Assembly: GCA_903839725.1 (NCBI GenBank)
Contig: CAIMDG010000001.1
Location: forward strand, 235,315 to 299,314
DNA: 64,000 nt
Origin: an uncultured bacterium
Lineage (GTDB): Bacteria > Patescibacteriota > Minisyncoccia > Phycocordibacterales > PALSA-1337
Direction: 5' to 3'
Position numbers and translations under genes: made by a program. Positions 7,901-50,743 of the stretch are shown here, one piece after another (position 1 is the stretch's first letter; each line of letters opens with the position of its first letter). The notes under the pieces were generated by a model. It searched no databases, was not told the DNA's origin, and was given only the letters and a program-made list of their open reading frames with translations.

Positions 7901-7912
7901 GTGTGTATTTAA

Positions 7913-8001
7913 TACGAATCTACGAATAATGCGAATCTACAAATTATTAATATGCGAATTGTTTGCGTTATTTGTGGCATTCGCATCATTTGTAGATTCG
8001 T
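7913..8001. promoter_or_regulatory. palindromic motif pair acgaatctacgaataatgcgaatctacaaat / atttgtggcattcgcatcatttgtagattcgt upstream of rpe
   Basis: Near-identical to the pair at 41737..41797 upstream of prfA. Confidence 0.6.
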
Positions 8002-26199: not shown

Positions 26200-26271
26200 G
26201 GCCACGTAGAAAAGTGGTAATTCGGAAGTCTGCAAAACTTCTATGCGCGAGTTCGATTCTCGCCGTGGCCT
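26200..26271 (+). tRNA. tRNA-Cys (GCA)
   Basis: Manual fold: acceptor ggccacg/cgtggcc, anticodon loop ctGCAaa, T-arm gcgag-ttcgatt-ctcgc. Confidence 0.8.
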
Positions 26272-26355
26272 CAAATCAGTAGAAAAAATTGGAATATAGA
26301 TTTATAAAAATCTGTATTTTTTAGTATCTGCAATTATTCATCTAACATAATATTA

Positions 26356-26877
26356 ATGCGAAAAAGAAGTTGGACAAAAGAAGATCTCGTAAAAGCGGTA
26401 ATAGAATCGAAGAGCGTGAGACAGACTATATCAAGGCTAAACCTTGTTGAAGCTGGTGGCAATTATAATCAAGTTAAGAAGTATATTAAATTATACAACT
26501 TAGATACATCACATTTTACTGGCTACACATGGAACAAAGGTATGTGTGGACGATATATGCCACTTATACCACTATCAAACATCTTAATAAGACATAGTGA
26601 ATTTCAAAGTTATAAACTTAAGAAACGTCTCTTCATCGAAAAAATCAAAACTCCCCAATGTGAAAACTGCGGTTGGGCAAAGAAATCAGAAGATGGTAGA
26701 ATCCCTCTTGAGCTTGACCATATCAATGGAGACAAGTACGATAATCGTATTGAGAACCTACGGGTTCTTTGTCCAAATTGTCATAGCTTACAACCTACAC
26801 ATCGAGGTAGAAATAAACACAAACGCCCGGGTGGTGAAATTGGTAAACACGTAACACTTAAAATGTTATCTTCGTAA
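26356..26877 (+). CDS. HNH endonuclease, homing-endonuclease-like freestanding type
   Basis: N-terminal SWTKEDLVKAV...GGNYNQVKKYI...DTSHF module and C-terminal HNH (LELDHINGDKYDNRIENLRVLCPNCH). The last ~53 nt of the ORF overlap tRNA-Leu. Confidence 0.8.
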   Translation: MRKRSWTKEDLVKAVIESKSVRQTISRLNLVEAGGNYNQVKKYIKLYNLDTSHFTGYTWNKGMCGRYMPLIPLSNILIRHSEFQSYKLKKRLFIEKIKTPQCENCGWAKKSEDGRIPLELDHINGDKYDNRIENLRVLCPNCHSLQPTHRGRNKHKRPGGEIGKHVTLKMLSS

Positions 26878-26908
26878 GGAGTTGTGGGTTCGATTCCCAC
26901 CCCGGGCA
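26825..26908 (+). tRNA. tRNA-Leu (TAA), type II with long variable arm
   Basis: Acceptor gcccggg/cccgggc, anticodon loop ctTAAaa, long variable arm, T-arm gtggg-ttcgatt-cccac. Confidence 0.8.
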
Positions 26909-26976
26909 CTCTGAATTTCATATATATTGTGAATATCTTTATAAACATTCCATTCTAAATTTGATATAATTTTTAT

Positions 26977-35772: not shown

Positions 35773-37539
35773 ATGAACCAACCTAACGAACAACTCCAAC
35801 ATCTTCGTCACACGCTTGCTCATCTTCTTGCAGCGGCCGTATTAGAATTATACCCAGATACAAAACCAACTATTGGTCCAGCGATCGATACTGGATTCTA
35901 TTATGACTTTGAATTCAAGACACCCATCACCGACAAAGACCTGAAAGACATAGAAAAGAAGATGCGTAAACTTCTTCCTTCATGGAAAGACATGTCTGGT
36001 AAAGAAGTTTCAGCCGATGAGGCTCGTTCCACATTCAAGGACAATCAATACAAGATTGAACTCATCAATGATATTCTTGCCAAGAATGAAAAAATAACTC
36101 TCTACACTGCCGGAAAGTTCACTGACCTGTGTCGTGGTGGACACAATGAGAATCCAGCAAAAGACATTCCTTCTGATTGTTTCAAACTTTCGAGACTTGC
36201 AGGTGCATATTGGAGAGGTGATGAAAAAAATATACAGCTGACTCGTATCTATGGAATTGCATACGCAAACAAAACTGACCTTGAAGTGTATGAAAATCTC
36301 GTGAAAGAAGCTGAAAAGAGAGATCACAAAAAACTCGGTAGAGAGCTCGACTTATTTACACTTTCTCCCCTTGTTGGTCCCGGTCTCCCTCTCCTCAAAC
36401 CAAAAGGTATGGCGATTCGCAGACAGATAGAGGCATACCTTTGGGAGTTACATCGTGACAAAGGCTATGAATGGGTCTGGACTCCACATATCGCAAAAGA
36501 AGAACTGTATGTCACCTCTGGTCATGCGGCAAAATTTGGAAATGAACTTTTCCGTGTTACAGGAAAAGAAGAAAAGTTTATTTTAAAACCTATGAATTGT
36601 CCGCACCATATGCAAATCTTTGCTGACAATCAATTCTCATATCGAGATATGCCTGTACGCTATTTTGAACCAGCAACTGTATATCGTGATGAAAAAAGTG
36701 GTCAGCTCGGCGGGCTCACTCGAGTTCGCGCTATCACCCAAGACGATGGTCACCTCTTCTGTCGTGTATCTCAAATTCAACAAGAAGTGAGTACTATCGT
36801 GGCTATCATCCGTCAATTCTATACAACAATGAACCTGATGAATGAATATTGGGTAAGTTTATCCGTACGCGGAGAAGATCGTAGCAAATATCTCGGTACA
36901 GATGAAGCATGGGAAAAAGCTGAAGGCGCACTCGAACAAGCAGCTATCGCAAATAATCTTAACTATAAAAAAGTTATCGGGGAAGCTGCATTCTACGGAC
37001 CTAAACTGGATTTTATGTTCAAGGATGCAATTGGTCGTGAATGGCAACTCGCTACAATTCAGTGTGACTTCAACCTCCCTGAACGCTTTGATCTTTTCTT
37101 CACCAATGAAAAAAGCGAGAAGGAACGTCCTGTTGTTATCCATCGTGCAATATCAGGATCCCTTGAAAGATTCATGGGTATACTTATAGAACATTACAGT
37201 GGCAATTTCCCTCTCTGGCTCGCACCATCTCAAGTTGCCGTTATTCCTGTCGGTGAAGCTCATTTTACTGAGGCACAAAAAGTTCATGATCTACTCCGTG
37301 GCGTAATGATTCGTTCTGAGATCGACCTCTCGAACAATGGCTTCGGCAAGAAGATTCGTAATGCCAAGAATGCTCGCACCCCATACACCATCATTATTGG
37401 CGACAAGGATATGGAGGCAAAGAAAGTAACCCTTGAAAGTCGAGATCTAGCTGCGCAGACAGGCAAAGGTCAGATCGGTCAACTCGACGCGAGTGAGGTG
37501 CTGAAGAAATTGGTTGAGGAAATTAACGAAAGAAAATAA
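35773..37539 (+). CDS. thrS: threonyl-tRNA synthetase
   Basis: Class II aaRS motifs, ThrRS catalytic core and C-terminal anticodon-binding domain. Confidence 0.9.
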   Translation: MNQPNEQLQHLRHTLAHLLAAAVLELYPDTKPTIGPAIDTGFYYDFEFKTPITDKDLKDIEKKMRKLLPSWKDMSGKEVSADEARSTFKDNQYKIELINDILAKNEKITLYTAGKFTDLCRGGHNENPAKDIPSDCFKLSRLAGAYWRGDEKNIQLTRIYGIAYANKTDLEVYENLVKEAEKRDHKKLGRELDLFTLSPLVGPGLPLLKPKGMAIRRQIEAYLWELHRDKGYEWVWTPHIAKEELYVTSGHAAKFGNELFRVTGKEEKFILKPMNCPHHMQIFADNQFSYRDMPVRYFEPATVYRDEKSGQLGGLTRVRAITQDDGHLFCRVSQIQQEVSTIVAIIRQFYTTMNLMNEYWVSLSVRGEDRSKYLGTDEAWEKAEGALEQAAIANNLNYKKVIGEAAFYGPKLDFMFKDAIGREWQLATIQCDFNLPERFDLFFTNEKSEKERPVVIHRAISGSLERFMGILIEHYSGNFPLWLAPSQVAVIPVGEAHFTEAQKVHDLLRGVMIRSEIDLSNNGFGKKIRNAKNARTPYTIIIGDKDMEAKKVTLESRDLAAQTGKGQIGQLDASEVLKKLVEEINERK

Positions 37540-38341: not shown

Positions 38342-39382
38342 TTATATCTTCGACTTATTGAAGACGAGATAGAGAACTGTAGCAAAGAGAAGGAGGATAA
38401 TGAGTATCGCGATCCAACCCCATGGAACATTTCCAAGTGAGAACAAAGATGCGGCAGAGAGTGAGTTTCCAGCAGTAGTTGTATTTGAACTAACTGTTGT
38501 CTTTGTATTTGATGAAGCAATGTTTGAACCTGCTCCTGTACCACGAACTGCGAGTGTATTAGTACATGAACGAGTACCTGTCTTACCATCAGCTGATGTA
38601 ACGGTAACGATGGCATTCTTTTCACCAGTTGTACTATATGTTTTGATGACAGATTTCGCTGTACCAGTCAAAGCATCAGAACCAGTCCATGAATATGTGT
38701 ATGGAGCAACACCACCAGTAACTTCTACCAACCATGTAATAGGCTGATTAACTGTGATTGTTGCAGGATCTGAGTAACAACCGATCTGAAGATCTTGATT
38801 CGAGTTAGAAGTTGTAGTGTACTGATTTGAATATTGCTGGTACACAACAGGCTGTTGGTACTGATAATATGCGTAATTGTAATTGATACCTACACTTGTT
38901 CCACAACTCTGAGTAGTTGACTGTCCGTTTGAGTATACGGTAACAGTTCCATATTTCTGACCAGGATTTGAATAGGCATTCGTAACGTATTGACCTGACC
39001 CGTAGAGACCGTCAGTACCAGTCCATGAATATGTGTAATTTCCATTTCCGCCAGTAGCATACGCAGACCACGTTACAGAAGTTCCGACATAACCACTTGT
39101 TGTATTTGGGCTACATGAAACACTGAGGGCCTGATAATAGGTAGTTGGAGGATAATACACTGGTGGCTGTTGATAGACAGGTGGCTGATATACAGGATAC
39201 TGAGGACGTGTATTACATGAACCGAAACGGTCACAGTAATTGGAGTTATATTGATAACTTCCACATCCGCCATATGAGTCACACCCATGAGCCTGGGCAG
39301 GTGTAACTACCATGAACATGCCAAAGGCAAGCATGAATGCCACACTGAGGATGAGATATGTTTTATTGATTGTATAATTCAT
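38342..39382 (-). CDS. secreted repeat protein: signal peptide, Tyr/Gln/Pro-rich region, two PKD/Ig-like repeats, C-terminal TM anchor
   Basis: Signal peptide MNYTINKTYLILSVAFMLAFGMFMVVTPAQA. Two about 80-aa repeats (...TWSAYATGGNGNYTYSWTG... and ...TWLVEVTGGVAPYTYSWTG...). C-terminal hydrophobic anchor. Confidence 0.6.
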   Translation of the reverse strand: MNYTINKTYLILSVAFMLAFGMFMVVTPAQAHGCDSYGGCGSYQYNSNYCDRFGSCNTRPQYPVYQPPVYQQPPVYYPPTTYYQALSVSCSPNTTSGYVGTSVTWSAYATGGNGNYTYSWTGTDGLYGSGQYVTNAYSNPGQKYGTVTVYSNGQSTTQSCGTSVGINYNYAYYQYQQPVVYQQYSNQYTTTSNSNQDLQIGCYSDPATITVNQPITWLVEVTGGVAPYTYSWTGSDALTGTAKSVIKTYSTTGEKNAIVTVTSADGKTGTRSCTNTLAVRGTGAGSNIASSNTKTTVSSNTTTAGNSLSAASLFSLGNVPWGWIAILIILLLFATVLYLVFNKSKI

Positions 39383-39517
39383 GGTTTTAGGCGACATCCC
39401 TATTATTCTCTGGCCATATGGCTTAACAGAGGCGTACAATAGGAATATTCAGCGATTAAATATTGTAATACCAGTATTGTATACTATATTAGATAAAAAG
39501 TCAAGCCCCCCTCTATA

Positions 39518-39541
39518 TTGGTGCCAAGGACCAGGGTCGAA
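39518..39541 (-). repeat. partial duplicate of the tRNA-Phe 3' end (ttggtgccaaggaccagggtcgaa)
   Basis: 23/24 identical to the tRNA-Phe 3' end at 39588..39611, lying 45 bp downstream of the tRNA. Confidence 0.8.
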
Positions 39542-39588
39542 TGTCTCCCCTTTCGTATTGAATCACAAGACTATTCTAAAAGACGATT

Positions 39589-39664
39589 TGGTGCCAAGGA
39601 CCGGGGTCGAACCGGTGACCCTTCCCTCTTCAGGGGAATGCTCTACCAACTGAGCTACCTTGGC
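39589..39664 (-). tRNA. tRNA-Phe (GAA), CCA encoded
   Basis: Reverse-complement fold: gccaagg-ta-gctcagttggtagagc-attccc ctGAAga gggaa-g-gtcaccggttcgaccccgg-tccttggc-a-cca. Confidence 0.85.
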
Positions 39665-39674
39665 GTATAGAAAA

Positions 39675-39941
39675 CTATTTTAACAAACCTTGCAGTGAAC
39701 TAATTGCACTATGAGTTGTCGCTGCATCACCTTGAATCTTGCCATACAATGTGAAGATCATCTCTATATATGGTTGGATCACGTAGTATGCACCGAAACT
39801 CACTCCTATAATAATCACCCAGTAACATACGGTCATCAGAGTCGCAAATCTATTTGCGCGACGCAATGAATGAAGTATTTTATTGTTCTCTTCCGCGAGT
39901 TTATGTGTCCTCTCGAGAAGTGATCGCTCTTCTGGGGTCAT
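39675..39941 (-). CDS. small membrane protein
   Basis: Start at MTPEERSLL. One or two TM helices. Confidence 0.35.
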   Translation of the reverse strand: MTPEERSLLERTHKLAEENNKILHSLRRANRFATLMTVCYWVIIIGVSFGAYYVIQPYIEMIFTLYGKIQGDAATTHSAISSLQGLLK

Positions 39942-41719: not shown

Positions 41720-41736
41720 AGTGGTTTAAATATAAT

Positions 41737-41797
41737 ACGAATCAACGAATAATGCGAATGCAACAAATTTGTAGCATTCGCATTATTTGTAGATTCG
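41737..41797. promoter_or_regulatory. palindromic motif pair acgaatcaacgaataatgcgaatgcaacaaat / atttgtagcattcgcattatttgtagattcg upstream of prfA
   Basis: Nearly identical to 7913..8001. Confidence 0.6.
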
Positions 41798-42758: not shown

Positions 42759-42829
42759 TGCGGGATCGTCTAATGGTAGGACACGAGCCTTTGAAGCTTG
42801 TTATCTTGGTTCGAATCCAAGTCCCGCAG
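42759..42829 (+). tRNA. tRNA-Gln (TTG) with U1:A72 and G73
   Basis: Acceptor tgcggga/tcccgca, anticodon loop ctTTGaa, T-arm cttgg-ttcgaat-ccaag. Confidence 0.8.
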
Positions 42830-42934
42830 CAGTCATGTGGTAGGTTCGGGAGACCGAGACCTGTCAGTTAATTATGTTTTTGACAAAGCGTTAATTCGTG
42901 GCGTTTTTCGGCTTTTTGTGAGAAGATAGGCTTT

Positions 42935-43936
42935 ATGAAACCTGAGGAAAAATTTATCAATATCACTGATAATAAGACAAAGATCAAACAGCTAATCGAA
43001 GAATTAGTTTTGGCCCCTCGACTGAATGCCATTAAATGGTCTCAAATTACGAAGCAAACTCCAAATATCAAGATTGGATATCCTGGACAGCATTTAGCCT
43101 CATTGATTACTGGAATGCCAGGCGAAAGAACTGGTGCGCGTGGCAATGATCTAATTGACGGTTCAGAAGTTAAATCGTGTTCTCGTGTTGATCAACTTGA
43201 TGTCTGTAAGGCATGTAAGTCACCTGTATCAAGATCCGAGGAAATATGTCCTGCCTGTAACTCAAAGGATGTATCTAGAAAAGAAGATTCAAAGTGGTTA
43301 TTTACGATTAGAAACGAGAACGATCTTAAGGTTCTTATAAATGATGTTAAAAGAGTTGTTCTCCTGATCGCTGATTATCCAAATTTTGAATCAAATGATT
43401 TCAATACTCTTCGTTTTCAGGCCTACGAAATTTGGACTCAAAGTCCAAGAAATAAAAGATTTAGTGAGTTGATGGATAACTACTATCATAAGATATACCT
43501 AGGACATAAGACAAAAGATGCCTCAAAGAACCCTGCACCAAAGAATTTTTGGCCATACTCATATCAATTTTTCCTCTGTAACCCAATCCTAACTTTCTCT
43601 TGTATAGTTAAAGACGCTAATACTAAACCAAAAATTGATATTCAGCATTATATAGAACCGAACCAAGATCGATCAAAATTGGAGTCTGTACTTATGCCAC
43701 CGAATCTTCTTGGTGATCTTGAATTTGATATTCTCTTAAATAATGCAAAAAAGTCAGAGATAATTGATATGCTTAATATCGATAAAATACCAGATTTTAA
43801 ATCTATGAAGTTACCAGAGAAGAGAAAGGTCTTTAAGGGTATTGATGAGAAGCTAAGATTCTATCTCCCATTAAGAGATACTGATAAGATTTCTGAATCT
43901 AAATCTGCTTACGCTCGTAGAAAATTAGTCGAATAG
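42935..43936 (+). CDS. putative type II restriction endonuclease
   Basis: Convergent with, and overlapping by 12 bp, a DPPY DNA methyltransferase. Has a Cys4 cluster (CKACK ... CPACN) and acidic/Lys residues (GNDLIDGSEVK) that could form a PD-(D/E)xK site. Called mainly from context. Confidence 0.35.
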   Translation: MKPEEKFINITDNKTKIKQLIEELVLAPRLNAIKWSQITKQTPNIKIGYPGQHLASLITGMPGERTGARGNDLIDGSEVKSCSRVDQLDVCKACKSPVSRSEEICPACNSKDVSRKEDSKWLFTIRNENDLKVLINDVKRVVLLIADYPNFESNDFNTLRFQAYEIWTQSPRNKRFSELMDNYYHKIYLGHKTKDASKNPAPKNFWPYSYQFFLCNPILTFSCIVKDANTKPKIDIQHYIEPNQDRSKLESVLMPPNLLGDLEFDILLNNAKKSEIIDMLNIDKIPDFKSMKLPEKRKVFKGIDEKLRFYLPLRDTDKISESKSAYARRKLVE

Positions 43937-44884
43937 TTTTTTCTGACTCTGTAAAAATTTAATTCTTTCTTTTGCTTTTTTGACGTAATCTGGATCAATT
44001 TCTATACCTATAAATTTTCTATTTAATTCTATTGCAGCCAAGGCGGTTGAACCTGCACCTAAAAACGGGTCAAGGACTATCATGCCCTCATTTGTACTAG
44101 CTTTGATGATTCGCTTGATTAAATCAACTGGTTTTTGAGTCGGATGATATCTTTCTTCTTTGTAAAATTTGATATCTGTCCAAACATCGGTGACTCCCAT
44201 CTCTATATTAAAGGTCTGCCCAATTTCCTCGTAAGGCAACTTAAATTCAAGGGCTTTCTCAAGTTTTTCCCACATCTCCCTTGTAGGGACTTGTGCAAGT
44301 ATATTTTCTCCTGTGTATAGCGACCAGACACCGCCACCATTGATCTTAACCCCAAGTCGTTTGTTTATATCTAAAGCAGTAAGCCCAAGTTCCTTCTGTC
44401 TCTTTTTTAGGAAGTCTTTAATAAACGGCTTACTATCGTAGATAAAAAATAGAAGGCTCTCGGTTACATTTGGAAACATTTTATATCCTTTCGTTGCTCT
44501 TCCCCCAAGAGCCTGCATACCTTTATCAATTACAAGTTGTTGTCTAAAAGTAAATCCTAAGTCTAGTATGTCTTTGTATAAATATACTAGGTTTCTCATA
44601 TATCCAAATAGGTAAAGACTACCAGAAATTTTAATTATTCTTGATAGTTCAGTGAACCATTCGAAGCACCACTTAGCGTAGTCACTTTCAGTTCTCCATT
44701 GATAATCCCAATGCTCGTTTATGACTTTCCAGTAAGGAGGATCGAGAACTATTAAATCAACACTTCTACTCGGCATTTTTTTTAGTTCTTCAATACAGTC
44801 GCCACAAATAATAGAATTAACCTCTAATTGGTTAACTAATTTACTTTTTTCTTTCTTTATCTTCTTATTCGTTTTTGTTGGCAT
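43925..44884 (-). CDS. DNA methyltransferase, beta-class (N6-adenine or N4-cytosine)
   Basis: DPPY motif IV near the N-terminus and FLGAGST motif I near the C-terminus. Confidence 0.8.
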   Translation of the reverse strand: MPTKTNKKIKKEKSKLVNQLEVNSIICGDCIEELKKMPSRSVDLIVLDPPYWKVINEHWDYQWRTESDYAKWCFEWFTELSRIIKISGSLYLFGYMRNLVYLYKDILDLGFTFRQQLVIDKGMQALGGRATKGYKMFPNVTESLLFFIYDSKPFIKDFLKKRQKELGLTALDINKRLGVKINGGGVWSLYTGENILAQVPTREMWEKLEKALEFKLPYEEIGQTFNIEMGVTDVWTDIKFYKEERYHPTQKPVDLIKRIIKASTNEGMIVLDPFLGAGSTALAAIELNRKFIGIEIDPDYVKKAKERIKFLQSQKKLFD

Positions 44885-44924
44885 TGTTGTTGATATTATG
44901 GCTTATTTCTAAGGTTTATACAAT

Positions 44925-46250
44925 TTAGACTTCATTCAAATATAATGTTTTATTATTAAGTTTAATTTTACTTTTTAAACAACTGAGCAACTCGCGTTTT
45001 TCAAAACTTGTACCTTCTCTTAGGATATATTTTGCATAGTTTCTGATTTCTATGTCCGCAACCTTTATCTTCTCGGTTTTACCAAGAACACCCGACTGAA
45101 ACTTCTTGTATCTCTCAACCTCAGCTTTTATATGCTCCTTCATACCGATCTCATCTAGATTAAGGGTGTCAATCATTTCCTCAAATTGTTTGATAAGATC
45201 TTCTTCTCGGATATACCCACACTTACAATCTTTATCTGCAAACCTGCTACATCCGTAGTACACATATCGATGCACATTTCCGTTAGCTTGTTTCTTGAAT
45301 TTCTCATCAGCAGTTATACCTGATCCACATAATCCACACTTGATGAGTTTCGTGAAGGCAAATTCCTTATTTTCAACTCGTATAATCGACCGTTGCATTT
45401 TCTCTTGCACGATATCAAATAGTTCCTTGGTGATGATCGGTTCATGTTTTCCCGTATACCATCGACCACTATTCTTTGGGTACTCGAAGCTACCGTAGTA
45501 GAAGTGATTTTTGAGGAGAATGTACACGTTGCTTAGGGTAAGTGGTTTACCTGACTTCGCTTTGAATTTGATTTCGTCCCGAAGCCAATAAAATATCTTT
45601 TTCCCACTCACGCCCTCATATGCCACTCGTTCGAACATCTTCTTCATGATCGGTGCTCGTTGATGATCTATATAGACGACCCCTTTCTCATTCACGTTGG
45701 TGCTATTAATGTAGCCTGTAGTTGCTACAGAAGGCCATAGACCCATCTCACACTTCGTTTTCAATCCTCGCTTCACATTGATGCTCTTGTTGTCGTTCTC
45801 GAGCTTAGCTTGGGATCCAAGGATCATGAGTAGGAACTTCTCATTTGGATTGTTCGTAAATTTCTGACTGTGCGTTCGTATCTCTATGAGGAGCTTCTGG
45901 TCAAGCAGATCGACAAGCGCTCCAAGATCTCCGGCATTTCTGCTCAGGCGATCAGGGTGCCATGTAATAATGCCGTTGAACTTTCCGCTCCGTATGTCTT
46001 GAAGAAGTTGATTGTACACAGGCCGTTGCCCGCAATCCTTTGCTGAATGGGACTCGCGATATACTTCAACAATATCGAGTTCGTCCCTTTGGGCAGTAGT
46101 GATCATTTCTTTGATCTGCGAGTCGATTGAAAGCGCTTGCCTTTCCTCCGCCTCACTCGATTTTCGAGCATAGAGGCAGTAACGTATTGGTAACGGCTTT
46201 ACCTCAAGATTGCCCATATTACTCCTCAGACCTATTGTTTTTGTTTCCAT
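44925..46250 (-). CDS. large serine recombinase (resolvase catalytic domain plus recombinase domain plus zinc ribbon)
   Basis: YARKSS catalytic Ser region, recombinase domain and C-terminal CxxC ... CxC cluster. Confidence 0.8.
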   Translation of the reverse strand: METKTIGLRSNMGNLEVKPLPIRYCLYARKSSEAEERQALSIDSQIKEMITTAQRDELDIVEVYRESHSAKDCGQRPVYNQLLQDIRSGKFNGIITWHPDRLSRNAGDLGALVDLLDQKLLIEIRTHSQKFTNNPNEKFLLMILGSQAKLENDNKSINVKRGLKTKCEMGLWPSVATTGYINSTNVNEKGVVYIDHQRAPIMKKMFERVAYEGVSGKKIFYWLRDEIKFKAKSGKPLTLSNVYILLKNHFYYGSFEYPKNSGRWYTGKHEPIITKELFDIVQEKMQRSIIRVENKEFAFTKLIKCGLCGSGITADEKFKKQANGNVHRYVYYGCSRFADKDCKCGYIREEDLIKQFEEMIDTLNLDEIGMKEHIKAEVERYKKFQSGVLGKTEKIKVADIEIRNYAKYILREGTSFEKRELLSCLKSKIKLNNKTLYLNEV

Positions 46251-46364
46251 ACTTACATTGATGACGCAGCCCCTCTTGAGAGTCTAGGACGCATCTGTTG
46301 GTAACTTATTCAGGCTATAATAATTAGCTTTTAAAATTAGTATTTTTGTGCTATAACTGGCCTA

Positions 46365-48125
46365 ATGAAACTTAAGAAAGTCAACATATCGGGTTTCCGA
46401 TCAATAAAGAAAACTGAGATACTTCTTGTTGAAGAGAAGATGACTATTCTAATCGGTGCAAACGATCACGGAAAGACTAATATTTTGAGTGCAATTGAAT
46501 TTTTGAATGAGGAAAAAACTTTTGTTCCAGATGATATTAACTGGGATCTTGAGACTGATCCAGATATAACAATAGAATGGCATTTTACACCATCGAGCGC
46601 TGCACTTGAGAAACTTGCATCACTTGAACATCAAACTGTTGAAGGTGAAGAGAGGCCGCCAATGATTGAAACCAATAAAGAGAATGAAATAGTTTATTAC
46701 CGAAAACATAGCGATAATAAAATAAAGGTTAAAAGTGTTCCTGGTATAATCCCTGTAGCAAAAGAGGTAGATGTTTTACAGTTGAGACCACGTATTGAAT
46801 TATTTGCGCCTCCAACTGCGAACTTGAGAGATCAAGTAAACCTAGGTCAACTTGAAACTTTGGAATTTGAATTTATGCAAGGAATATTTAGACTTGCTGG
46901 TATTTGGGATGTAAGGAAGGATATTTTTGTACAAAATGATAAGACTTCAAAATTGCTTGATGAGGCGTCATTGAAACTTACTGAAGTCCTAAATACTAAA
47001 TGGAATCAAGGCAGAGATCTAAAATGGAAAATAGAGCACACAGGAACAAACGGTGATCATATAGCCATAAAGATTCAAGATCCCGCTATTGGGACAAGGT
47101 ATACACGACCCTCTCTTAGGTCGTCTGGTTTTCGTACCTATTTCTTGCTTTCAATGATTACTTATGCTCGAACTGAAAATAAGGTTGCAGATTCGTATGT
47201 GTATCTCTTTGATGAACCAGGCACATATTTGCATCCTCATGCTCAATTGGATCTACAACGTAGCTTTGAATCAATATCTGGAAAGACGCAGATTATATAT
47301 ACAACACATTCACTTTTTCTTATCAATAAAAACTATCCTGGTAGAAATCGTGTAATAAGCAAAGCGAAAGACGGCACTAAAATTGACCAAAAGCCTTTTG
47401 TAAAAAATTGGAAATCTGTCCGAGAGTCACTTGGTATACTACTTAGTAATAATTTTCTTATTGCTGAAAAAACTCTTCTTGTTGAAGGCCCTTCTGATGT
47501 GATTTATATTCTTCATGCAATTAAGAAACTTAAAGCGGCGGATGAAATAGACATCGATCTCAATGATCTAAGCGTTGTTGATGCTGGGACATCTGAAAAC
47601 TATCTTGCTATGGCAAAGTTGATGGTTGCTGAAGGTCGTGAGGTTGTCGCGCTTTTGGATGGTGATAAGAAAGGTGAAGAAATAGAGAAACAATTGAAAA
47701 AAGTTTGCGAAAAAGAAATTAAGGATGGGAAACTCCAGATTCTCAAACTCCCTAAGGATAAATCAATAGAAGATATATTCACTGATGTGTCTGTTACCAA
47801 AAAAGCAATTGAGGCACTTGCTACTGATCTTATTGGAATGGGTATTCGTAAGTTGAAAAACGGAATTAACCTTGCTGGCGAAGTTGCCAAAATCGCGCCA
47901 ACTACTACTTTAACACTCGGAAGAATCATAGATGAAAAAACAACTTCAATGTTTGATCCAGAAGAGAAGCTTTCAAAACTTTCTATCGCACTAAAATATG
48001 AGGATATTATGTCGGACTCGGTTGCACTACCAGATAATGCTAAAGAGCAGATAGAAAAAATTAAAGACAAACTTTCTCTTAAAAATGAGAGAAATGATGA
48101 AAAATCTATTTTTGAAGAGGTCTAA
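46365..48125 (+). CDS. OLD-family nuclease: ABC-type ATPase plus C-terminal TOPRIM (class 1 OLD / GajA / fused PARIS-like architecture)
   Basis: Walker A GANDHGKTN, Walker B YLFDEPGTYLHP. TOPRIM region with LLVEGPSDVIYI and LLDGDKKGEE. 586 aa. Confidence 0.75.
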   Translation: MKLKKVNISGFRSIKKTEILLVEEKMTILIGANDHGKTNILSAIEFLNEEKTFVPDDINWDLETDPDITIEWHFTPSSAALEKLASLEHQTVEGEERPPMIETNKENEIVYYRKHSDNKIKVKSVPGIIPVAKEVDVLQLRPRIELFAPPTANLRDQVNLGQLETLEFEFMQGIFRLAGIWDVRKDIFVQNDKTSKLLDEASLKLTEVLNTKWNQGRDLKWKIEHTGTNGDHIAIKIQDPAIGTRYTRPSLRSSGFRTYFLLSMITYARTENKVADSYVYLFDEPGTYLHPHAQLDLQRSFESISGKTQIIYTTHSLFLINKNYPGRNRVISKAKDGTKIDQKPFVKNWKSVRESLGILLSNNFLIAEKTLLVEGPSDVIYILHAIKKLKAADEIDIDLNDLSVVDAGTSENYLAMAKLMVAEGREVVALLDGDKKGEEIEKQLKKVCEKEIKDGKLQILKLPKDKSIEDIFTDVSVTKKAIEALATDLIGMGIRKLKNGINLAGEVAKIAPTTTLTLGRIIDEKTTSMFDPEEKLSKLSIALKYEDIMSDSVALPDNAKEQIEKIKDKLSLKNERNDEKSIFEEV

Positions 48126-48425
48126 ACATGACTGTTGGTAACTCGACTTCGCAACCCCTCTAATCTAAGCTAAGGTACAGGACAGATTTTGATATTTCTG
48201 GTATTATTATTTTACAACTGAATAAGTGACCTAACCCCTAAATAACCCTTTGTTTTCTAGGATATGGTCGAAAAGCCGTCCAAAGTAAAGAACTCCTAAT
48301 CAGAGCTACTTTGGACGGTCACATCTCGAAAGAGGTGTGGGCACTCCCTGCGGGGTTTGTCGGCCTGGTTAGGAGCTTTTTGCTATCTAGTTCTCGGTCA
48401 TTATTAGTAAAACCGTCCAAATTTT

Positions 48426-48884
48426 ATGAGTATATTTGAATTTGTCATACCTGTAGTTACTCTAGTTGTACTGACTGCCATCGTCGTATTAGCTGTTAAA
48501 GAAATTAGAATAAATAAGAAAGTTAAAATTCTTCTTAAAAGTTTGACTGTTAAGTATCAAGAAAGTCCTGCTTTGTACATTCAGGATCTAATTTCTTTAG
48601 AGACATACAAAAATAAACAGAAAGATATTGTTCTGATAAAAGCATTGGATATGCTAAAAAAGCAGAAAGAGTTTGCTGAACTAGCGCAGAAGAAGCAAAA
48701 TTATAAATCAGATTACACCTCTTTGATTTTAATATCAGTGTTGGTACTTATTTCTGCAATAGTTGCTGTTCTTTTATATATGCTTACATTGATTATCCCA
48801 GGATTGGTATTTAGTTGGATCTTCGTTGCTCTTGTTGTGTTAGTGATTGCGGTGGTATTTATTATTACGGCTTTCGTTTCTTAA
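48426..48884 (+). CDS. small membrane protein (N-terminal TM plus C-terminal double TM) downstream of the OLD nuclease
   Basis: Hydrophobic N- and C-termini with a charged middle. 152 aa. Confidence 0.45.
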   Translation: MSIFEFVIPVVTLVVLTAIVVLAVKEIRINKKVKILLKSLTVKYQESPALYIQDLISLETYKNKQKDIVLIKALDMLKKQKEFAELAQKKQNYKSDYTSLILISVLVLISAIVAVLLYMLTLIIPGLVFSWIFVALVVLVIAVVFIITAFVS

Positions 48885-49383
48885 TCTTCTCCCATATTTT
48901 TCTTTGCTTAGGTGTCTTGCTGAAGAATTCCTTTAGGTATTTCTGATGCATTTCTTCGGTATATTCATCTTGAGAGAATGCCTTGTGGAATTGTTTTGCC
49001 TCATCAAAATTATGAGGTGCAGGTGATCTGTAACCACACTCGCTACATACATCACCAGGTTCAAAGTTGTGTTTATGCTCCTTTGGGATAATGTACGCGG
49101 TTCGTTTCGGCATATATCTCGGATCATTGTTGTTGAGATAATACTGAATAGCTCGAAAATCACCCTCGTTCACGAGCTTGAGTAATTTCGATTCAGCAAT
49201 CTCCCCAGCATTCGCTCTTCCATGTTTAAGAGCCTCGTCAATCGCTTGGCGAAATTCTGGGATATCTTTGATCCATCTGTAGACTGTCGCTCTGGCAATA
49301 CCTGCTTTTTTACATGCGTAATTGATGAAGGGCTTTTCGGAAAGTATTTCTACAATTTGGTTTCTAGTAAAATTACTTTTCAT
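48865..49383 (-). CDS. HTH protein, phage terminase small-subunit-like
   Basis: ACKKAGIARATVYRWIKDIPEFRQAIDEA helix-turn-helix typical of terminase small subunits and phage regulators. Confidence 0.4.
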   Translation of the reverse strand: MKSNFTRNQIVEILSEKPFINYACKKAGIARATVYRWIKDIPEFRQAIDEALKHGRANAGEIAESKLLKLVNEGDFRAIQYYLNNNDPRYMPKRTAYIIPKEHKHNFEPGDVCSECGYRSPAPHNFDEAKQFHKAFSQDEYTEEMHQKYLKEFFSKTPKQRKIWEKIKKRKP

Positions 49384-50743
49384 CGACTTTACGTCGTTTC
49401 TTACCTGTTAGCTTCTCCCATCGATTGAGTGCCACTTCAGCATACACAGGAGACTTCTCCATGATGAAGCATCGACGCTTTAGCTTCGTACACGCAATAA
49501 GTGTTGATCCGCTCCCACAGAATGGTTCAAGAACCAGCTGGTCACGCTTAGTGAGTACTTTGATGTATGGAATCAGTATTTCAATTGGCTTAGTGCCGAA
49601 GATAATTCCTTGTCCTGATGATTTCTCATCCGCTGCATTGTAGTCAACAAAATCAGTCGGGCAATACTTCTTACCTTTACCATACGACTCCCAGTGAGGC
49701 TTACCCTGAATAGCGAAGAGGGCTGTCTCGTATTCATTTTGAAGCAATTCATCTGCCTCTACTTCAGGATCTACACCCCCACGTTCATTACTTGTACCAA
49801 CCATGGCAATATCATGCTTCGAGAAGAACTTATGAGCACCTGCGTATCCTTGATTACGGTTCGGAAGGTGCCAAACAATCATATTGCGTACCTTCCAATG
49901 TTTTTCCATTTCACCCCAGATAGTGCGGATATTTTTCCAGTTCTCGTAACAGATGATTGAGAAATTTGAAGCTTGTACTTTTGCGACATTTGCCATCCAA
50001 AGTTCAGTGAAGTTCTCAGGTAATGATTCAGTCTCAAGATATCGACGATTTTTCTTTGCGCCGAATCCTGTGGTTGCTTCACCATGTTTTGTTTTTCCAT
50101 GAAGATAGTCCAATATATAAGGTGGGTCAGTCATGACCATATCTATCTTGTTGTCTCCACAGAGCTTGAGTATATCCGCTTCAACAGTTGAGTCACCACA
50201 CATCAGTTTTGATCCATCAAGATCGTACACGTCACCTTTCTGTACTGTTATTGTTCCTATTTCAAGTTTGTCGAGTTCTTTTTGGAGATCGAATTGTTCC
50301 TCAACCGAGTCTTCTTCGAATATTGAATCGAGTTCTTCTGAAGCGAAGCCTATATCAGAAAGGAATGTCTCATCAAATTGAGCGAGCAAGTCAAAATCCC
50401 ATTCGCCCTGGTTTTTATTGAGGCGAATACAGAGTTCCTTTTCTTTCTCCAGATCAGGAATATTTATGTATACAACAGGTACAGTTTCAAAGTTAAGCTC
50501 TCGAAGAACTTTCGCTCTAAAGTTGCCTCCGATGATAATTCCTTTTCTTGTTTCGGCTGAGTTTACGAGCAATGGATCGACTACTCCATACTGTTCGATA
50601 CTTTGTTTGAGTTGAGCAGTTGCTTCTTCATCCCAGACACGAGGGTTGTAATCTGGAGAAGTGAGGGTTGATAATGGAACATACTCGATTTTAAGGTCAC
50701 GTTCGTGTGAACGTGCAGAGCTACCTACGTTTGTATTTTGCAT
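49373..50743 (-). CDS. ParB-like nuclease domain fused to a DNA methyltransferase
   Basis: N-terminal ParB/Srx fold (VVDPLLVN ... GNFRAKV). C-terminal beta-class MTase (MTDPPY, PFCGSGST). This architecture is common in phage orphan MTases. Confidence 0.75.
   Translation of the reverse strand: MQNTNVGSSARSHERDLKIEYVPLSTLTSPDYNPRVWDEEATAQLKQSIEQYGVVDPLLVNSAETRKGIIIGGNFRAKVLRELNFETVPVVYINIPDLEKEKELCIRLNKNQGEWDFDLLAQFDETFLSDIGFASEELDSIFEEDSVEEQFDLQKELDKLEIGTITVQKGDVYDLDGSKLMCGDSTVEADILKLCGDNKIDMVMTDPPYILDYLHGKTKHGEATTGFGAKKNRRYLETESLPENFTELWMANVAKVQASNFSIICYENWKNIRTIWGEMEKHWKVRNMIVWHLPNRNQGYAGAHKFFSKHDIAMVGTSNERGGVDPEVEADELLQNEYETALFAIQGKPHWESYGKGKKYCPTDFVDYNAADEKSSGQGIIFGTKPIEILIPYIKVLTKRDQLVLEPFCGSGSTLIACTKLKRRCFIMEKSPVYAEVALNRWEKLTGKKRRKVDEK

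Follow-up and report, generated by a model that had tools for sequence, protein, structure and literature searches.

The tRNA-Phe(GAA) gene of the window, by which we mean the whole stretch of 64,000 nucleotides analysed here, is followed by a real partial copy of its own 3′ end (R′), and this copy belongs, as one unit, to a repeat that recurs at tRNA-Phe across a clade of Paceibacteria and is not a private scar of this genome. We read the unit as most probably a relic of recombination, rather than as a working gene or as the boundary of some large mobile element. In kind it is ordinary, a tRNA-gene fragment repeat; mildly unusual are its cargo-less length of ~70 nt, its sharing by a clade, its variable copy number and the way in which its 23-nt part tracks the resident tRNA. 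As to its origin, we favour, with slightly less than even confidence, an attR-type junction: R′ and the 28-nt block directly upstream of it (P) would form a CIME-like stub that dates from site-specific recombination at the tRNA-Phe T-loop in an ancestor of the clade.

The features of the locus are collected in Table 1. Read in the tRNA sense, the tRNA-Phe gene ends in ...GGTTCGACCCCGGTCCTTGGCACCA, and its last 23 nt (R) hold TTCGACC beginning at T54, the 3′ strand of the T-stem, the 3′ strand of the acceptor stem, A73 and CCA; on the plus strand, TGGTGCCAAGGACCGGGGTCGAA (39589-39611) is the reverse complement of these 23 nt from T54 to CCA. R′ has the same orientation as the gene (both on the minus strand), and its sole mismatch to R is an A at 39533 against a G at 39603 (plus strand). 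With the shared base after CCA, the two segments form a 24-mer that is identical at 23 of 24 positions (96%; 39518-39541 versus 39588-39611). A copy of this length and identity beside the intact tRNA had been proposed in a sequence-only reading, and both pattern matching and a repeat finder reproduced it. Its placement downstream of the gene is also borne out; the distance, given there as 45 bp, measures 47 nt from the CCA of tRNA-Phe to R′, which is close enough, and the start-to-start spacing of R and R′ is 70 nt. In the tRNA sense, the gene is followed by a non-coding 47-nt spacer (39588-39542), R′ (39541-39519), 14 nt, the promoter, and the PKD gene, whose ATG lies at 39382, 136 nt beyond R′. 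No match to the 23-mer was obtained in 100 dinucleotide shuffles, which gives the chance expectation for such a copy. Other samples yielded seven independent contigs of this species, all with the identical arrangement, and therefore R′ is not an assembly artefact. Partial copies of the other four tRNAs in the window (Cys, Leu, Arg and Gln) were not found. Among the five tRNA genes of the window (26200, 26825, 39589, 40081 and 42759), only tRNA-Phe encodes CCA.

Table 1. Features of the tRNA-Phe locus and of the island behind tRNA-Gln, in coordinates of the window
Feature	Coordinates	Strand	Basis or remark
tRNA-Phe(GAA), intact, CCA encoded	39589..39664	-	ARAGORN; Rfam RF00005, 69.8 bits
R, own last 23 nt of tRNA-Phe	39589..39611	-	Read from sequence, pattern match
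R′, partial copy of tRNA-Phe 3′ end, TTCGACCCTGGTCCTTGGCACCA	39519..39541	-	22/23 identical to R
F′, 19 nt directly 3′ of tRNA-Phe CCA, AATCGTCTTTTAGAATAGT	39570..39588	-	Hypervariable among relatives
P, 28-nt block CTTGTGATTCAATACGAAAGGGGAGACA directly upstream of R′	39542..39569	-	Conserved between lineages
Sigma-70-like promoter of surface-protein gene, TTGACT-17-TACAAT	39476..39504	-	Consensus scan, 10/12 matches
PKD-domain surface or membrane protein (signal peptide, C-terminal TM)	38342..39382	-	Pfam PKD_4
Small membrane protein, 88-aa core (ORF to 40046)	39675..39941	-	Conserved left neighbour of tRNA-Phe
Low-GC (0.34-0.38) island directly after tRNA-Gln (42759-42830)	42759-50743		
MamI restriction enzyme, tRNA-Gln island	42935-43936	+	
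N6/N4 methylase, tRNA-Gln island	43925-44884	-	
Large serine recombinase, tRNA-Gln island	44925-46250	-	Pfam
OLD-family ATPase/TOPRIM nuclease, tRNA-Gln island	46365-48125	+	
HTH/terminase-small-like protein, tRNA-Gln island	48865-49383	-	
ParB-N+methylase, tRNA-Gln island	49373-50743	-	

Relatives of its threonyl-tRNA synthetase place the window in a Paceibacteria (Patescibacteria) genome. Related loci were obtained by a metagenome scan for the 23-mer and by look-ups of homologues of the small membrane protein, of which there were 167; the cassette tRNA-Arg(CCT)/small membrane protein/tRNA-Phe(GAA) is widely conserved across Paceibacteria. The 76-nt tRNA-Phe sequence is identical in L007, L085, L086, L089 and L090. 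The closest syntenic relative, L007, shares this tRNA-Phe, a small protein 92% identical to that of the window, the promoter and the PKD gene, and carries a single 23-mer without an R′ copy, that is, an empty site. The unit is also absent in L085, L090, L093-96, L112 and L118. By comparison, four other lineages (L086/L087, L089, L099 and L092) bear a homologous unit of ~70 nt at tRNA-Phe, so that the comparison with related genomes suggested in the sequence-only reading yields both empty and occupied sites. In every unit-bearing lineage, a spacer of 44-49 nt precedes a copy of that lineage's own tRNA-Phe end. In L086/L087, whose small protein is 93% identical, at least two identical 72-nt units stand in tandem and the contigs break within the array; L089 (small protein 58% identical) has one unit and an extra TTGGCACCA 9-mer; the unit of L099 goes with a different tRNA-Phe allele; and the contig of L092 ends within the spacer. 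Copy number across the clade thus runs from zero (L007) through one (the window) to at least two (L086/L087). In a tree of the small protein, the unit-bearing loci fall in one part, with the unit-less L007 and L091 nested within it, and the other Paceibacteria clades have no units.

Comparison of the units reveals which parts are held and which drift. R′ is the resident tRNA's own end in L086 and L089 (23/23 each) and in L099 (26/26), where the tRNA-Phe end differs from the window type at five of 23 positions, lacks an encoded CCA and is copied together with 6 nt of flank. In the window, L086/L087, L089 and L099 the identity begins exactly at T54 and finishes at the gene end plus 0-3 nt, and the T54 edge is preceded by ACA in every lineage. 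Spacer homology is significant between the window and L086 (p<0.0005), L086 and L089 (p=0.0035), and L089 and L092 (p<0.0005). P of the window matches 27/28 positions in L086, 18/29 in L089 and 20/30 in L099. F′ is less conserved than P, with 12/21 between the window and L086; likewise, L089 and L099 agree at 25/29 positions in P and at 11/24 in F′. The window and L086 are 22/23 identical in R′, ~94% in the promoter region and 94-96% in neighbouring blocks, and their divergence is confined to the bases after each CCA, namely F′ and a 10-nt indel after R′.

The copy does not behave as a tRNA or a folded element. ARAGORN detected no tRNA-like structure at R′ and the spacer (39519-39588), Rfam at E<=10 returned the real tRNA only, and global alignment of the spacer to the first 53 nt of tRNA-Phe was no better than shuffles (p=0.2-0.6; p=0.5 for the window); a decayed full-length tRNA pseudogene was therefore rejected for the window. 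A terminator or a conserved regulatory hairpin was rejected as well: zero terminator-like sites were predicted at tRNA-Phe and R′, tRNA plus trailer folded no better than shuffles (single-sequence z=-0.98), the consensus fold of four diverged units reached -4.2 kcal/mol with eight pairs, one of them covarying, and the unit is absent in L007. Presence of the segment in all relatives as a conserved hairpin was the circumstance that the earlier reading had named as fatal to its proposal, and L007, with the same tRNA and downstream gene and one 23-mer only, contradicts it. In addition, a retro-copy of the mature tRNA is excluded by L099, in which the gene has no CCA and the copy consists of the gene end and 6 nt of flank, again without CCA.

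Traces of exchange were found at the tRNA-Phe end of other loci, and short-range copies also occur at other tRNA genes in these genomes. The loci L091 and L092 (tRNA-Phe at L091 1005-1080 and L092 680-753) agree at 99.7% of positions over 753 nt, beyond which, from inside the tRNA-Phe 3′ end onward, they diverge completely. The L091 gene pairs the 5′ strand GCCAAGG with the 3′ strand CCTCGGC, giving an A4·C69 mismatch in a hybrid acceptor stem; its flank resembles that of L118, whose tRNA bears the 3′ strand CCTCGGC. The tRNA-Phe gene of L092 lacks a full CCA. At L090 (673-900), a 21-nt copy of tRNA-Arg(CCT), from T54 to the end, lies 129 nt downstream of its gene; the spacer before this copy holds an inverted copy of the T-loop region. 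The reverse-strand tRNA-Ser GGA of L013 has a 51-nt copy of its 3′ half (anticodon loop to end) 34 nt downstream and a 35-nt copy of its 5′ half 115 nt upstream. Upstream of tRNA-Phe in L097 (920-1026) and L100 (5300-5387) stand tandem units of 37-42 nt, each formed by the first ~24 nt of tRNA-Phe and a copy of the upstream flank, the mirror image of the 3′ unit; L097 has at least three such 5′-type units, and both contigs end in or beside the array. Mini-repeats extend across the tRNA end in L089 and L107.

We found no donor element. Most long ORFs in the 17-61 kb part of the window were scanned with Pfam and gave no tyrosine integrase, and no integrase gene or pseudogene occurs between or beside R and R′, so that the integrase pseudogene anticipated by the sequence-only reading did not materialize. 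Nor was an integrase, excisionase or cargo seen at tRNA-Phe in ~15 related loci, and the flanking genes are syntenic with L007, L087 and L089, with no foreign cargo breaking synteny at R/R′. A second att copy elsewhere, likewise anticipated, did not appear either: there is no third copy of the 23-mer in the 64-kb window at <=3 mismatches, the 23-mer in either form and the P/R junction had zero matches in IMG/VR viral contigs, and BLAST of the spacer plus R′ against phage and plasmid records returned nothing meaningful. Among 120 tRNAs in all fetched loci, no tRNA-end repeat lay >500 nt from its tRNA. In a scan of JGI metagenomes, everything that the 23-mer retrieved was a chromosomal tRNA-Phe locus, apart from one phage-like tRNA array. 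The phage-like contig L088 carries 15 tRNA genes in 6 kb, and its tRNA-Phe (2387-2462) has exactly the window-type last 23 nt together with a 5′ acceptor strand, GCCTCGG, that mismatches at two positions; judged from these strands, this tRNA may be chimeric. It was considered as a possible attP or hybrid site, and no recombinase is present on L088.

The sole recombinase found is the large serine recombinase of the low-GC island with the MamI restriction-modification pair (Table 1), 5.3 kb away on the 5′ side of tRNA-Phe. No tie between R′ and this island emerged: the island lies beyond tRNA-Gln, core genes (RF1 and L31) stand between, and nowhere in the window does a stretch of >=10 nt from the tRNA-Gln 3′ end recur. 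Just after the OLD-family gene of the island, 48228-48357 (+) matches the LOOT RNA (RF03000, 68.8 bits; gathering score 46.4). What stands of the proposal that R′ is the att-like scar of a lost element is thus the anatomy, comprising a near-identical direct repeat, edges at the T-loop and the gene end, and an empty site in relatives such as L007; a recombinase between or beside the repeats, cargo that breaks synteny and a matching attP elsewhere were not found.

Elements that target tRNA and tmRNA genes use canonical crossover sublocations in the T-loop and the anticodon loop (PMC3146451, PMC9897764), and integration commonly leaves fragments of tRNA genes in prokaryotic genomes (PMC9897764). 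The edges from T54 to the gene end in four lineages fit such sublocations. From this fit and the conservation pattern, we infer the involvement of a recombinase and the following order of events. An element bearing its own copy of the tRNA 3′ end would have integrated at the T-loop of tRNA-Phe, rebuilding the gene and pushing the original 3′ end downstream, where it would now be R′, with the intact tRNA as attL. The interior of the element would then have been lost, leaving a cargo-less CIME-like stub with 47 nt between two 23-nt direct repeats; this stub would have no present function and would persist because it is tiny. Recombination between the repeats may at times delete the stub, as in L007 and L091, or amplify it into the two or more tandem units of L086/L087.

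Several observations accord with such a relic. P stands next to each copy and aligns poorly with the tRNA, and so reads as a conserved element end. If R′ is the displaced end of the host gene, it would match each host's tRNA for that reason, with no need of conversion, and the hypervariable bases 3′ of both CCA ends would be explained by repeated events at both repeats. Presence and absence among close relatives and the hybrid acceptor stem of L091 fit as well, and the tandem 72-nt units of L086/L087 are like arrays formed by accretion or unequal exchange at att repeats (PMC5704250). Counting against the relic are the missing recombinase and cargo at every tRNA-Phe locus, the missing long-range repeat and attP, and the near-constant spacer, which is awkward for independent decay of large elements.

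The closest described parallel to such a relic, by analogy of layout, is found in the ssrA islands of Dehalococcoides, which have 20-bp direct repeats and are made by a large serine recombinase (PMC3146451). Common to these islands, the archaeal PYG1 and the present unit are a 3′ repeat in the same orientation that starts in the T-loop and finishes at the gene end (PMC3146451, PMC9897764), a conserved motif just upstream that does not align, serial repeats, and presence or absence between strains. The known cases extend over 9-100 kb, many of them with an integration module, whereas here 47 nt separate the repeats and no relative shows a recombinase, cargo or a compositional break. CIMEs, as defined together with their tandem arrays formed by accretion (PMC5704250), resemble the unit in having two att-like repeats without genes, in tandem in one relative and lost in others; described CIMEs are kilobases long and excisable as circles, whereas ours is a 70-nt unit in which retained attL and attR with lost genes are likened at the level of sequence only. 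On length, a unit of 70 nt is too short for circularization on its own. The tandem units of L086/L087 would accord with descent from an ICE or IME that a related element's recombinase could excise or mobilize in cis, though they do not prove it. A different precedent is set by the tandem trnF(GAA) pseudogene arrays beside functional trnF in plastids of Brassicaceae and Solanaceae (PMC3786074), which likewise hold partial copies of the same tRNA species beside the functional gene, in a number that differs among related lineages; their head-to-tail units are some tens of bases long and combine tRNA domains with motifs of the flank and the promoter. The plastid copies lie upstream of trnF and retain mostly anticodon, T and D domains, usually without acceptor strands; unlike them, the Paceibacteria unit keeps the acceptor 3′ strand and T-loop perfectly and the rest unrecognizably, with sharp edges at recombinase sublocations.

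The plastid precedent favours the alternative to which we give most weight, a local partial tandem duplication in which no mobile element took part and in which conversion or unequal crossing-over kept the 23-nt end identical. Because the unit is clade-wide and varies in copy number, such an origin has a fair probability, somewhat below that of the relic. Slippage or unequal exchange in an ancestor would have doubled a segment of ~72 nt that starts near tRNA position 27 and reaches ~20 nt beyond the gene, and the redundant middle of the copy would have decayed. The unit length of 70-72 nt equals tRNA positions 27-76 plus ~20 nt of flank, and part of the spacer looks accordingly: in L099 (p=0.004) and L089 (p=0.04), its 3′ part (P) is similar to positions 29-53 of the resident tRNA, and in L086 (p=0.008) and L099 (p=0.08) its 5′ part is similar to the downstream flank of the same lineage. 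The likeness of P to the tRNA in L099 and L089, and that of F′ to the flank in L086, fit tandem duplication and speak against the relic, as do the 5′-type units of L097 and L100, which are not easily explained by integrases. The identical tandem units of L087, the arrays of 5′ end and flank in L097 and L100, the mini-repeats over the tRNA end in L089 and L107, and the want of any integrase, cargo or long-range repeat all agree with duplication; the confinement of units to one part of the tree built on the small protein agrees with one origin followed by losses, and head-to-tail partial-tRNA units of varying copy number, as in a tandem pseudogene array, are indeed present. Set against this, the window's own spacer has no significant likeness to tRNA-Phe or to its own flank, and the identity begins exactly at T54 everywhere, with the 5 nt before it the least tRNA-like, whereas conversion or neutral decay would leave edges that are ragged and differ by lineage. 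The end of the L099 unit is identical at 26/26 positions and the rest of the putative duplicate at 27/42 (Fisher p=0.0002), which excludes uniform decay and calls for an extra process, and P is kept far better than F′ between close relatives, as given above for the window and L086. The 129 nt before the tRNA-Arg copy of L090 also look, by eye, unrelated to tRNA or flank.

A further reading, which we hold to be rather improbable, takes P and R′ as a maintained, sequence-tracking module across the Paceibacteria clade, with analogous short copies at tRNA-Arg and tRNA-Ser. It may be a miniature non-autonomous integrative unit or spare landing site served by a recombinase in trans (for example a large serine recombinase such as that of the island 5 kb away), or it may be a cis element of the tRNA-Phe precursor; in either form the 23-nt part may be held identical by selection or by recurrent site-specific exchange. 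Selection on P plus R′ (~51 nt) as a functional element, whether a secondary landing site (attB or decoy) or a cis element in the tRNA-Phe precursor or downstream leader that must match the resident tRNA, seems quite improbable to us. R′ does track the resident tRNA through five substitutions, and P is conserved at 62-96% where F′ is not; a weak hairpin predicted between P and the R′ acceptor strand contains one covarying pair (A-U, A-U, G-U, G-C); and, as no terminator was predicted between tRNA-Phe and the unit, the two are probably co-transcribed. The length would suit a serine recombinase, whose att sites are ~51 nt in size. The folds are weak by both measures given above, the copy number varies, the distance from R′ to the downstream promoter ranges from 14 to ~150 nt among relatives, and the downstream gene is different in L099. 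Neither L007 nor most Paceibacteria with the same gene cassette have the unit, and function is little supported because the unit is dispensable in close relatives. Very improbable, finally, is a larger island that takes in the surface-protein gene and has R′ as its attR, or an element that ends at R′ and has its second att at another place. Geometry alone speaks for it, with the PKD gene 136 nt beyond R′ and a hypothetical 206-aa gene in the region. The PKD gene has syntenic homologues downstream of tRNA-Phe in L007, L087 and L089, where promoter and N-terminus are conserved too, and L007 has no copy; the PKD gene is therefore native and not inserted, which disposes of the suggestion that R′ marks the other end of an element holding it. 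The threonyl-tRNA synthetase (ThrRS) gene and a 204-aa gene are likewise syntenic, the GC content at 38-40 kb is unremarkable, and the window has no third 23-mer. The recombination relic, the tandem duplication, the functional element and the larger island together take up most of the probability that we assign, and the small rest is left to explanations outside these four.

Taken alone, the R′ unit is a small non-coding relic for which no effect on the cell is evident. It points to the 3′ end of tRNA-Phe as a hot spot of recombination in a little-studied group of ultra-small bacteria, in which, to our knowledge, mobile elements have seldom been described. The conserved 28-nt block followed by a copy from T54 to the gene end offers a search motif that could lead to an unseen element or recombinase. 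That a 23-nt pseudo-copy follows its functional neighbour while adjacent bases drift bears on the homogenization of short repeats, and annotators should be warned of such fragments within 50-130 nt of tRNA genes in these genomes.

Other parts of the window gave observations of their own. The ThrRS gene (35773-37539, +) is a mosaic when compared with that of L007 (9185-10957): identity is 84-100% over the first ~160 and the last ~110 residues and only 18-58% in the catalytic core, which suggests, from the alignment, that the middle of the gene was replaced by recombination. An HNH endonuclease ORF (26356-26877, +) lies between tRNA-Cys (26200-26272) and tRNA-Leu (26825-26909) and overlaps the start of the latter. 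Two adjacent blocks of ~30 nt occur at 7907-8000 and again, 93-94% identical, at 41730-41797, one copy standing just upstream of the RF1 gene.
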